IMG/VR virus record: IMGVR_UViG_2734482542_000002
Reading direction: 5' to 3' (one strand)
Source of the DNA: a virus
Lineage: Duplodnaviria > Heunggongvirae > Uroviricota > Caudoviricetes
Length of the DNA: 15,832 nt
The notes under the pieces were generated by a model. That model was not told the origin of the DNA, did no database searches, and was given only the letters and a program-made list of their open reading frames with translations. Both the position numbers and the translations under genes were made by a program. This document shows positions 221 to 5,574 of this stretch, piece after piece; position 1 is the first letter of the stretch, and each line of letters begins with the position of its first letter.

Positions 221-249
221 GTCCGGTTCTGGCACGGAAGAAACCGGAC
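221..249. other. Stem-loop (8-bp stem GTCCGGTT/AACCGGAC, 13-nt loop) just downstream of the moron gene stop
   Basis: Perfect inverted repeat read directly from sequence. No clean U-tract follows on the minus strand; a weak T-rich stretch follows on the plus strand. Confidence 0.3.
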
Positions 250-257
250 GTTATGAT

Positions 258-668
258 TTAGTGCGGAAATATTTGTGTAGTGTTCTGTATGTTCTCAGTA
301 AAGAGTAATGAATTATCAAAGGTATAGTAATACCTTTTGTTTTCGTGGATATTTGTAATCCATCTGAAAACCCCTGCTGTAGCAAGATTTTTCCTGTATT
401 CGTAAAATGATAACTCTCCTGATTTGAATCCTTTTAAGGTGGCTTCTATAAGGCATTTATTTTTTGAAAATCTTACATTTACAACCTTACCCTGTCCTTT
501 TATTAAAACCGTATTATCGTTTTCAAGAACAAGATGAATATTCTCTGTGGCTAAATAGTAAATGTAATGTGAGACATTGTGACGTTTTAGTTCAGAATAA
601 AACCAGTGATAGTTTAAATTATTTCGCACTTTATCGAATATTTGTTTAAAAATGGCAACCTGAGCCAT
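258..668 (-). CDS. Hypothetical protein, 136 aa from second Met (141 aa if started at 683); AT-rich moron gene, function unknown
   Basis: Uninterrupted ORF 258-683. The in-frame ATG at 668-666 is preceded on the minus strand by GGAAGG about 7 nt upstream, whereas the ATG at 683 has no purine-rich RBS. Composition is markedly AT-rich versus flanks. The protein is aromatic-rich (YHWFY, HYIYYL, RYYYTF) with no catalytic motif I recognise. Confidence 0.6.
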
Positions 669-725
669 TGTAGTACCTTCCATGTGATATGAGGGGGCGT
701 AGTCTGCACGATTATCTAAATTGCT

Positions 726-959
726 TCAATCTGGTCTAACCTGTTTTCTGAGCAATTCAGTAATGTCACTCTTTTCTTTGTTTGCTTCAGGCGAAACTCT
801 TTTTTCTGAGCACAGTCTCCGGCGGCAGGCTTCAATGACCCAGGCTGAGAAATTCCCGGACCCTTTTTGAACAAGAGCGATGTTAATTTGTTCAATCATT
901 TGGTTAGGAAAGCGGATGTTGCGGGTTGTTGTTCTGCGGGTTCTGTTCTTCGTTGACAT
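726..959 (-). CDS. Small ribbon-helix-helix (Arc/Mnt/CopG-like) DNA-binding protein, 77 aa
   Basis: After a basic N-terminal tail (KNRTRRTTTR), the segment NIRFPNQMIEQINIALVQKGSGNFSAWVIEACRRRL has the beta-strand/helix/helix pattern of Arc and Mnt (compare Arc FNLRWPREVLDLVRKVAEENGRSVNSEIYQRV). It lies directly upstream of, and co-directional with, the 136-aa gene. Confidence 0.6.
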   Translation of the reverse strand: MSTKNRTRRTTTRNIRFPNQMIEQINIALVQKGSGNFSAWVIEACRRRLCSEKRVSPEANKEKSDITELLRKQVRPD

Positions 960-1070
960 GAGGTTGCCCTGTATTCAGTGTCGCTGATTTGTATTGTCTG
1001 AAGTTGTTTTTACGTTAAGTTGATGCAGATCAATTAATACGATACCTGCGTCATAATTGATTATTTGACG
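960..1070 (-). promoter_or_regulatory. Putative promoter/operator region for the minus-strand moron operon
   Basis: Intergenic AT-rich stretch between the RHH gene start (959) and the lambda-homologous cos flank. Contains inverted repeat ATCAATTA-N17-TAATTGAT (1029-1061) and direct repeats TGTATT at 970-975 and 990-995. No sigma70 -35/-10 hexamers confidently assigned. Confidence 0.3.
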
Positions 1071-1158: not shown

Positions 1159-1170
1159 GGGCGGAAGGCG
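1159..1170. other. cosN: cosN cohesive-end site, variant 12-mer GGGCGGAAGGCG
   Basis: Flanks (GATCCGACAGGTTACG on the left, CGCGGGTTTTCGCTATTTATGA on the right) match lambda cos. The 12-mer differs from canonical lambda GGGCGGCGACCT in its last six bases. Confidence 0.75.
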
Positions 1171-1347: not shown

Positions 1348-1867
1348 ATGGAAGTCAACAAAAAGCAGCTGGCTGACATTTTCGGTGCGAGTATCCGTAC
1401 CATTCAGAACTGGCAGGAACAGGGAATGCCCGTTCTGCGAGGCGGTGGCAAGGGTAATGAGGTGCTTTATGACTCTGCCGCCGTTATAAGATGGTATGCC
1501 GAAAGGGATGCTGAAATTGAGAACGAAAAGCTGCGCCGGGAAGTTGAAGAACTGCGGCAGGCCAGCGAGACAGATCTCCAGCCAGGGACTATTGAGTACG
1601 AACGCCATCGACTTACGCGTGCGCAGGCCGACGCACAGGAGCTGAAAAATGCCAGAGACTCCGCTGAAGTGGTGGAAACCGCATTCTGTACTTTCGTGCT
1701 GTCGCGGATCGCAGGTGAAATTGCCAGTATTCTCGACGGGATCCCCCTGTCGGTGCAGCGGCGTTTTCCGGAACTGGAAAACCGACATGTTGATTTCCTG
1801 AAACGGGATATCATCAAAGCCATGAACAAAGCAGCCGCGCTGGATGAACTGATACCGGGGTTGCTGA

Positions 1868-1893
<26 letters not shown>
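1348..1893 (+). CDS. nu1: Terminase small subunit gpNu1
   Basis: 181 aa starting MEVNKKQLADIFGASIRTIQNWQEQGMPVLRGGGKGNEV, essentially lambda Nu1. Overlaps A by 26 nt as in lambda. Confidence 0.97.

Positions 1894-5574
<3,681 letters not shown>

Follow-up and report, generated by a model that had tools for sequence, protein, structure and literature searches.

Lambdoid accessory genes of the DUF3950 and DUF1398 families at the lysis-cos junction of a lambda-like phage genome

IMG/VR record IMGVR_UViG_2734482542_000002 (Caudoviricetes; 15,832 nt, the whole of which is called the window below) contains two small minus-strand genes at the junction between the lysis genes and cos of a lambda-like phage. 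We conclude, with a probability of about 0.8, that this region consists of known lambdoid accessory genes, ynfO/ylcI (DUF3950) and ydfO/ybcV (DUF1398), and is neither a toxin-antitoxin nor a known defence module. The gene pair is already known and catalogued, with its function still unassigned; a review of the K-12 y-ome keeps ynfO and ydfO among the uncharacterised genes (PMC11551758). The result is in this respect a negative one, since the locus would be no new toxin-antitoxin or defence module. Both families are present in lambda, the best-studied phage, and DUF3950 is found in 77% of complete Escherichia coli genomes, with up to 12 copies each, which places it among the most widespread uncharacterised prophage genes there. 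Assignment of a function would clear two K-12 y-ome entries and shorten lambda's list of unexplained open reading frames (ORFs).

Family identity and relation to lambda, Qin and DLP12

Both proteins score above the thresholds of known family profiles. The 77-aa protein matches Pfam DUF3950 (PF13132; E 2e-20, 72.8 bits, cut-off 25) and NCBIfam NF041551 (YlcI_YnfO_N; 35.2 bits, cut-off 30), and the 136-aa protein matches Pfam DUF1398 (PF07166) with 147 bits (cut-off 22), covering profile positions 1-119 of 119. In PHROGs, the two proteins are assigned to phrog_413 and phrog_949. The fold of the larger protein is that of YdfO, whose structure was solved by nuclear magnetic resonance (NMR; PDB 2HH8), and the duplicated alpha-alpha-beta-beta-beta unit of 2HH8 is present in it. 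An initial annotation of this DNA had named both families as guesses, and the guesses were exact. Other identities were rejected. The alternative 141-aa form of the DUF1398 protein gave a weak match to Pfam HEPN_AbiA_CTD (E 0.014, 15.8 bits, cut-off 27) and contains R15-x5-H21; the HEPN reading was discarded because H21 is replaced by E in lambda and YbcV and by Q in YdfO, and because the protein has an alpha/beta rather than an all-alpha fold. The matches to anthranilate synthase (NCBIfam) and to Csx23 (PADLOC; E 0.023, 12.7 bits) lie far below their cut-offs.

The two ORFs and the gap between them were found where they had first been placed (Table 1). For the DUF1398 gene, ATG 668 is favoured because GGAAGG precedes it, with nothing resembling a Shine-Dalgarno sequence 5' of ATG 683; as read from the sequence, it is the better start. 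The RefSeq annotation in near-identical genomes is likewise the 136-aa form. The AT richness noted earlier for this gene (about one-third G+C) is borne out, both by 200-nt windows, in which G+C is 0.30-0.33 across 300-700 versus 0.52-0.58 from 1400 onward, and gene by gene, with 0.314 for DUF1398 (0.307 at third codon positions), 0.444 for DUF3950 and 0.53-0.58 for nu1, A and the portal gene. Thus, the DUF1398 gene has 31% G+C against 54% for the whole window. Together with the presence of the genes in some lambdoid phages and their absence from others, this composition agrees with the accessory, 'moron'-like character and with the position at the lysis-cos junction that had been proposed.

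The same layout exists in K-12 prophage Qin, where the order is nohA, ynfO, a 57-nt gap and ydfO, beside the nohA/Nu1-type packaging gene. Qin YnfO is 98% identical to the 77-aa protein over residues 1-50 and shares its C-terminal tail, whereas Qin YdfO and the DUF1398 allele of the window are only 75% identical, with differences clustered in residues 58-97. In addition, the Qin pair resides in a decayed prophage, while that of the window is part of an apparently complete lambda-like genome. DLP12 (order ybcV, ybcW, ylcI, nohD) and the right end of lambda (lambdap78, lambdap79 and an unnamed 64-aa ORF) have both families in the same place and orientation as the window. In these two, however, an insertion of about 575 bp with the plus-strand gene ybcW separates the genes and replaces the DUF3950 tail. 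In lambda the insert begins directly after ATCTGGTCTGACCT. Lambda therefore matches the window in two pieces: from about 790 to 1160, that is, from the DUF3950 core through cos, base-for-base identity is nearly complete, and the DUF1398 gene is 83% identical to the lambda copy. The initial annotation had let lambda-like sequence begin only at about 1070, which is wrong, and had described the AT-rich second gene as looking horizontally acquired. The module is not foreign to lambda; because lambda itself carries both genes, the pair is part of the lambda gene pool.

Among 5426 complete E. coli genomes, 3802 have a match to the segment 200-1100 (901 bp), and 2654 of these match at least 80% of it contiguously. 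Contiguous matches are always annotated 'DUF1398 domain-containing protein | YlcI/YnfO family protein'. The homologue lists also hold hundreds of contigs of about 3.3-3.6 kb with frameshifted copies of both genes, as well as lambda-identical copies under unrelated names ('Campylobacter phage CJLB-4', Staphylococcus aureus, Bacillus sp. and the spider Caerostris extrusa). Such copies look as if assemblies had been contaminated with control or spike-in DNA from the lambda right end, which inflates the apparent family size and host range. The two ORFs share a reading frame, and between them are one TGA, followed by A (726-728), and 19 sense codons (669-725). Apparent natural DUF3950-DUF1398 fusions are present in databases (P0014, 233 aa with 761 members, and P0010) and show W at the codon where the DNA reads TGA; we regard these 'fusion' proteins as gene-calling artefacts on short contigs.

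Independent occurrence and proposed roles of the two genes

The two genes assort independently. By tblastn against phage records, DUF3950 is found in 155 and DUF1398 in 43, and at least 112 phage records have DUF3950 without DUF1398. Among the complete E. coli genomes, 4162 to 4184 contain DUF3950 and 3011 a full-length prophage-type DUF1398. Shiga toxin (Stx)-converting phages with HNH-TerS-TerL (HK97-type) packaging have DUF3950 at the same junction, antisense, with no DUF1398; in two of them the DUF3950 genes occupy 3501-3728 (L026) and 3501-3701 (L027), and an HNH gene is located between DUF3950 and the terminase genes. YlcI/YnfO is also listed in capsid-forming phage-inducible chromosomal islands, according to an Enterobacter paper. 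Conversely, 20 loci from Kluyvera, Klebsiella, Pseudocitrobacter, Salmonella diarizonae and Raoultella encode DUF1398 homologues of 50-60% identity with no DUF3950 ORF within 4 kb. They represent at least six ordinary chromosomal contexts, with neighbours for sulphur transport/TusA, GAPDH, aldehyde dehydrogenase, a GGDEF/MASE4 protein, a cold-shock-domain protein and a BhsA-like protein, and K-12 ycgX is a solitary DUF1398 paralogue beside bluR. In six Kluyvera loci (L004, L005, L006, L007, L008 and L020), the chromosomal DUF1398 homologue has immediately upstream of it a small divergent ORF (74-139 aa; minus strand, about 3530-3850, or 1045-1464 in L007), which contains the core ...NHKRLLAVQAALEISKAS... 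and matches nothing in Pfam. L018 has a related ORF on the downstream side, and this small ORF is a possible recurrent DUF1398 neighbour.

Between diverged alleles (dS, the synonymous distance, up to 1.6), the ratio of nonsynonymous to synonymous changes (dN/dS) is 0.18-0.35 for DUF1398 and 0.04-0.22 for DUF3950 codons 1-50; the value of 0.88 for the window/ynfO pair carries no information, these sequences being nearly identical (dS 0.015). By this measure, both are real genes under purifying selection. Their variation is uneven. In DUF3950, the first 50 or so residues are almost invariant, and the tail is free in sequence and length. In DUF1398, replacements are clustered in residues 58-97, a loop with helices 3 and 4 (pN/pS, the corresponding polymorphism ratio, 0.3-0.7), against 0.08-0.2 in strand-rich regions. 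Codons 1-30 (579-668) show nine non-synonymous and no synonymous differences from lambda, a sample too small for significance. The variation from these codons and residues 58-97 falls mostly on helices, not on the sheet.

We propose that the pair, which lies between the lysis genes and cos, at the right end of the lambda-type genome, and is presumably transcribed antisense to the late operon, comprises two separately evolving accessory cargo genes of the lysogenic-conversion type, which would be neighbours by chance in this phage lineage and expressed in the lysogen or under stress. The 77-aa protein would be a small dimeric ribbon-helix-helix (RHH) DNA-binding regulator, with a basic arm and an N-I-R-F-P strand reading DNA and a tail free to vary. 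Since the putative DNA-reading strand is invariant, a conserved target is implied, and its place would be elsewhere than upstream of DUF3950 itself, since the lambda-type and Stx-type sequences there lack homology: nucleotide similarity between the two types of DUF3950 loci begins exactly at the ATG. An inverted repeat upstream of the gene (Table 1) is identical in lambda, Qin and DLP12, and absent from Stx-type phages with the same protein.

The RHH reading was already part of the initial annotation, and it stands as to the motif and the predicted two-helix core; significant sequence, profile or fold matches were not obtained. The protein has a basic N-terminal arm followed by the N-I-R-F-P strand motif, and its AlphaFold model consists of an extended segment (13-18) and two helices (19-32 and 34-52) with a glycine turn between them. 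By hhalign, the motif aligns with N-L-R-W-P of Arc and N-F-R-M-P of Mnt, the P22 repressors, which have similar helix lengths and also a glycine-containing turn before helix 2. The scores are weak (Arc, E 0.023 and probability 2%; Mnt, E 0.25), no RHH family appeared at E<=1 in Pfam, no sequence or profile match was found in PDB, and structural comparison with solved RHH proteins gave sub-threshold matches only; none of the sequence, profile or fold scores against Arc and Mnt is significant. On balance, it probably has a ribbon-helix-helix fold.

The 136-aa protein, in turn, would be a cytoplasmic, non-enzymatic binding protein, in which a duplicated alpha2-beta3 unit forms a conserved beta-sheet core with variable helices. 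The family alignment reveals no conspicuous conserved residues of catalytic type. The protein is predicted to have no signal peptide or membrane segment because its N-terminus is an amphipathic helix in a confident model. The variable helical face suggests a changing macromolecular partner.

As for expression, no terminator hairpin was found in the spacer between the genes (RNA fold z +1.6), so the DUF1398 gene may be transcribed by read-through from the upstream gene. It is also probably transcribed from a stress- and PdhR-responsive promoter of its own, overlapping a PdhR-type box; taken separately, we give the existence of its own promoter an even chance. The homologous site in DLP12, AtcTGGTctgACCtcTT in the ybcV/ybcW intergenic region, is among the PdhR targets derived by genomic SELEX (gSELEX), and ybcV mRNA is down 10-fold in a pdhR mutant (PMC7660256). 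At its right edge (about 743), the palindrome meets the left breakpoint of the ybcW insertion of lambda and DLP12; the PdhR-like box may serve regulation, mark a recombination joint, or do both.

Published transcript changes of ydfO and ybcV in cryptic prophages support expression. For example, ydfO rises 12-fold on arrays and 117-fold by quantitative PCR after imidazolium ionic-liquid shock (PMC4077768), ybcV and ybcW rise more than 1000-fold upon overexpression of T4 MotB in a study of H-NS-dependent repression (PMC7827196), and an early rise of ybcVW follows induction of a DNase toxin (PMC12607911). On account of its AT richness, the DUF1398 gene is probably expressed at a low level and induced by stress, in line with published results on ydfO and ybcV. 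A claim that overexpressed YdfO raises oxidative-stress resistance (PMC4077768, citing Wang 2010) was left unused as evidence because of a name mix-up: the proteins reported in Wang 2010 (PMC3105296) are YfdK, YfdO and YfdS, from prophage CPS-53, and ydfO does not appear in that paper. The mix-up of ydfO and YfdO could propagate.

Several points weigh against the proposal. In the window and Qin, the genes are adjacent, co-directional, 57 nt apart and in frame, with no terminator between them, and a functional link between the two may exist in this lineage. The candidate promoter and the PdhR box are pattern matches, and the -35/-10 spacing of the former is not kept in lambda. No operator is shared between the lambda-type and Stx-type regions upstream of DUF3950. 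The lack of toxicity described below is only suggestive because the overexpression strains carry chromosomal ylcI/ynfO. Finally, the literature searched holds no functional study of either DUF.

Alternative readings

An improbable extension of the proposal would make DUF3950 a conserved RHH regulator that marks the lambdoid lysis/packaging junction whatever the packaging type, and DUF1398 one of several interchangeable downstream cargo genes, acting as an unrecognised lysogen-expressed effector. If this were true, DUF1398, with its variable helical face and a fold without a linked mechanism, would have a role in phage exclusion, anti-defence or host-stress modulation.

A related reading is that DUF1398, alone or with the RHH regulator, provides lysogen-expressed anti-phage defence or superinfection exclusion. 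The position beside bor-type lysogenic-conversion genes, antisense to the late operon, is consistent with it, as are the AT richness and presence/absence polymorphism of DUF1398, its variable helical surface over a conserved core, and an orphan fold that contradicts nothing. However, PADLOC-DB 2.0 gave no defence-system match above cut-off for the 136-aa protein (the only match being Csx23) and nothing for the 77-aa protein, and no defence link for either DUF appears in the literature searched. Matches of some kind occur in 5376 of the 5426 E. coli genomes, in most of which solitary ycgX accounts for a partial match. The distant homologues in ordinary chromosomal neighbourhoods look more like host physiology than an arms-race system, and the published inducers are chemical or metabolic stresses. 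We therefore consider a defence or exclusion role doubtful.

The initial annotation had likened the pair to toxin-antitoxin and abortive-infection modules in its architecture. Read as a type II toxin-antitoxin system, the pair would consist of a DUF1398 toxin and an RHH antitoxin that regulates its own expression and neutralises the toxin through its C-terminal tail, and the layout, with a small RHH-like gene followed by the co-directional 136-aa gene and no terminator between, is what such a system would have. Nevertheless, each gene is common without the other, so there is no obligate pair. In lambda and DLP12 the RHH tail has been replaced and an opposite-strand gene inserted, with DUF1398 intact under purifying selection. 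One and the same tail, that of the window and YnfO, is paired with DUF1398 alleles only 75% identical; hence, the tail does not co-vary with the partner. Moreover, DUF1398 has no toxin fold or family match: structure searches returned no toxin or defence fold and left it an orphan fold. DUF1398 proteins have also been expressed alone, in structure determination and in a reverse-engineering screen: YdfO was produced for its NMR structure, and ybcV was cloned alone in a pACYCDuet expression vector in BL21(DE3) (PMC7181518), both of which suggest that strong toxicity is absent. With independent assortment, a pair split in lambda and no toxin fold, a toxin-antitoxin module is very unlikely.

Rated slightly lower still is the idea that the two are leading-end early genes, expressed at once on entry, such as anti-defence factors. 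The right end of lambda leaves the capsid first, owing to packaging polarity; the DUF3950 start codon is 200 bp from cosN, both genes read away from the end, and the DUF3950 position is kept in phages with a different packaging module. This argument is one of geometry alone, and a consensus scan predicted no strong promoter 5' of the DUF3950 gene. In Stx-type phages the HNH gene intervenes between DUF3950 and the terminase genes, and cryptic prophages, which never inject DNA, keep both genes under purifying selection. In addition, lambda p78 is dispensable for plating, being non-essential for lytic growth by CRISPR interference (PMC10695390).

A structural role of DUF1398 in the virion or envelope, as the labels of PHROG 413 ('head protein') and of lambda-type RefSeq/GenBank records such as lambda p78 in NC_001416.1 ('head protein' or 'putative envelope protein') would have it, deserves next to no credence, for the gene is not part of the late operon, to which it is antisense, is dispensable to lambda, has solitary chromosomal paralogues in non-phage contexts and begins with an amphipathic helix rather than an export or membrane signal; the labels are unsupported by sequence, fold, gene position or essentiality and look like propagated annotation.

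Neighbouring features and comparison with known systems

Table 1. Positions of the gene pair and of features around it in the window
Feature	Position	Strand	Remarks
DUF3950 / YlcI-YnfO family gene	726..959	-	77 aa, ATG start; variable C-terminal tail
DUF1398 gene, YdfO/YbcV/lambda-p78 homologue	258..668	-	136 aa; other in-frame ATG at 683 would give 141 aa
Shine-Dalgarno-like GGAAGG	676..681	-	read from the sequence; 7 nt 5' of ATG at 668
Intergenic spacer	669..725	-	57 nt; in frame with both ORFs; no other stop codon; unstructured
Sigma-70-like promoter match TAGACC-16-GATAAT	711..738	-	consensus scan, 9/12 matches; just 5' of DUF1398 gene, overlaps DUF3950 3' end
PdhR-box-like palindrome ATCTGGTCTAACCTGTT	729..745		sequence and lambda alignment; overlapped by sigma-70-like match 738-711
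Hairpin GTCCGGTT-N13-AACCGGAC	221..249		just 3' of DUF1398 stop; -15.2 kcal/mol, z -1.76, no U-run
Inverted repeat ATCAATTAATACG / CGTCATAATTGAT	1029..1061		70-100 nt 5' of DUF3950 start codon; candidate operator only
cosN cohesive end GGGCGGAAGGCG	1159..1170	+	lambda alignment; variant of lambda GGGCGGCGACCT; right boundary of module neighbourhood
nu1, small terminase subunit	1348..1893	+	Pfam Phage_Nu1, E 2.4e-101; first gene of late structural operon, divergent from gene pair

The hairpin behind the DUF1398 stop codon is a possible weak terminator, with an unexceptional fold energy. A search of positions 1-1500 against Rfam returned only sub-threshold miRNA noise at 1262-1329. At the right boundary, the cohesive end differs from that of lambda at six sites, all in the second half of the 12 nt, between identical flanks. 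L001, the E. coli relative closest in the moron region, carries the canonical cosN. A full match to the 96-nt cos segment at 99% or more was found in no phage record, and only about 86 of the 3472 E. coli records with a match attain 95%; meanwhile, the exact 32-mer with the variant occurs in 14 IMG/VR contigs. Judging from these records, the variant is a genuine cos allele, though a rare one, and its ends would fail to anneal with those of lambda.

With ParD/ParE, CopG-type and RelB/RelE systems, the pair shares the gene order, in which a small RHH-like protein comes first and a larger partner second. It differs from systems with RHH antitoxins in that the partner lacks a toxin fold, linkage is not obligate and the tail does not co-vary. 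As for a compact bicistronic layout, the 57-nt spacer of the window lacks a terminator and contains a promoter-like site; lambda and DLP12 have 575 bp, with an opposite-strand gene, between the two. The pair may also be compared with the lambda morons bor and lom. Their products are known (outer-membrane or lipoprotein virulence factors), whereas neither DUF1398 nor DUF3950 has been given a function, and both lack an export signal; in addition, lambda has bor further left, and the window shows no bor. In other respects, the genes are alike: bor has the same location and orientation as the pair of the window, and bor, lom and both genes studied here are accessory, non-essential for lytic growth, atypical in composition and variably present.

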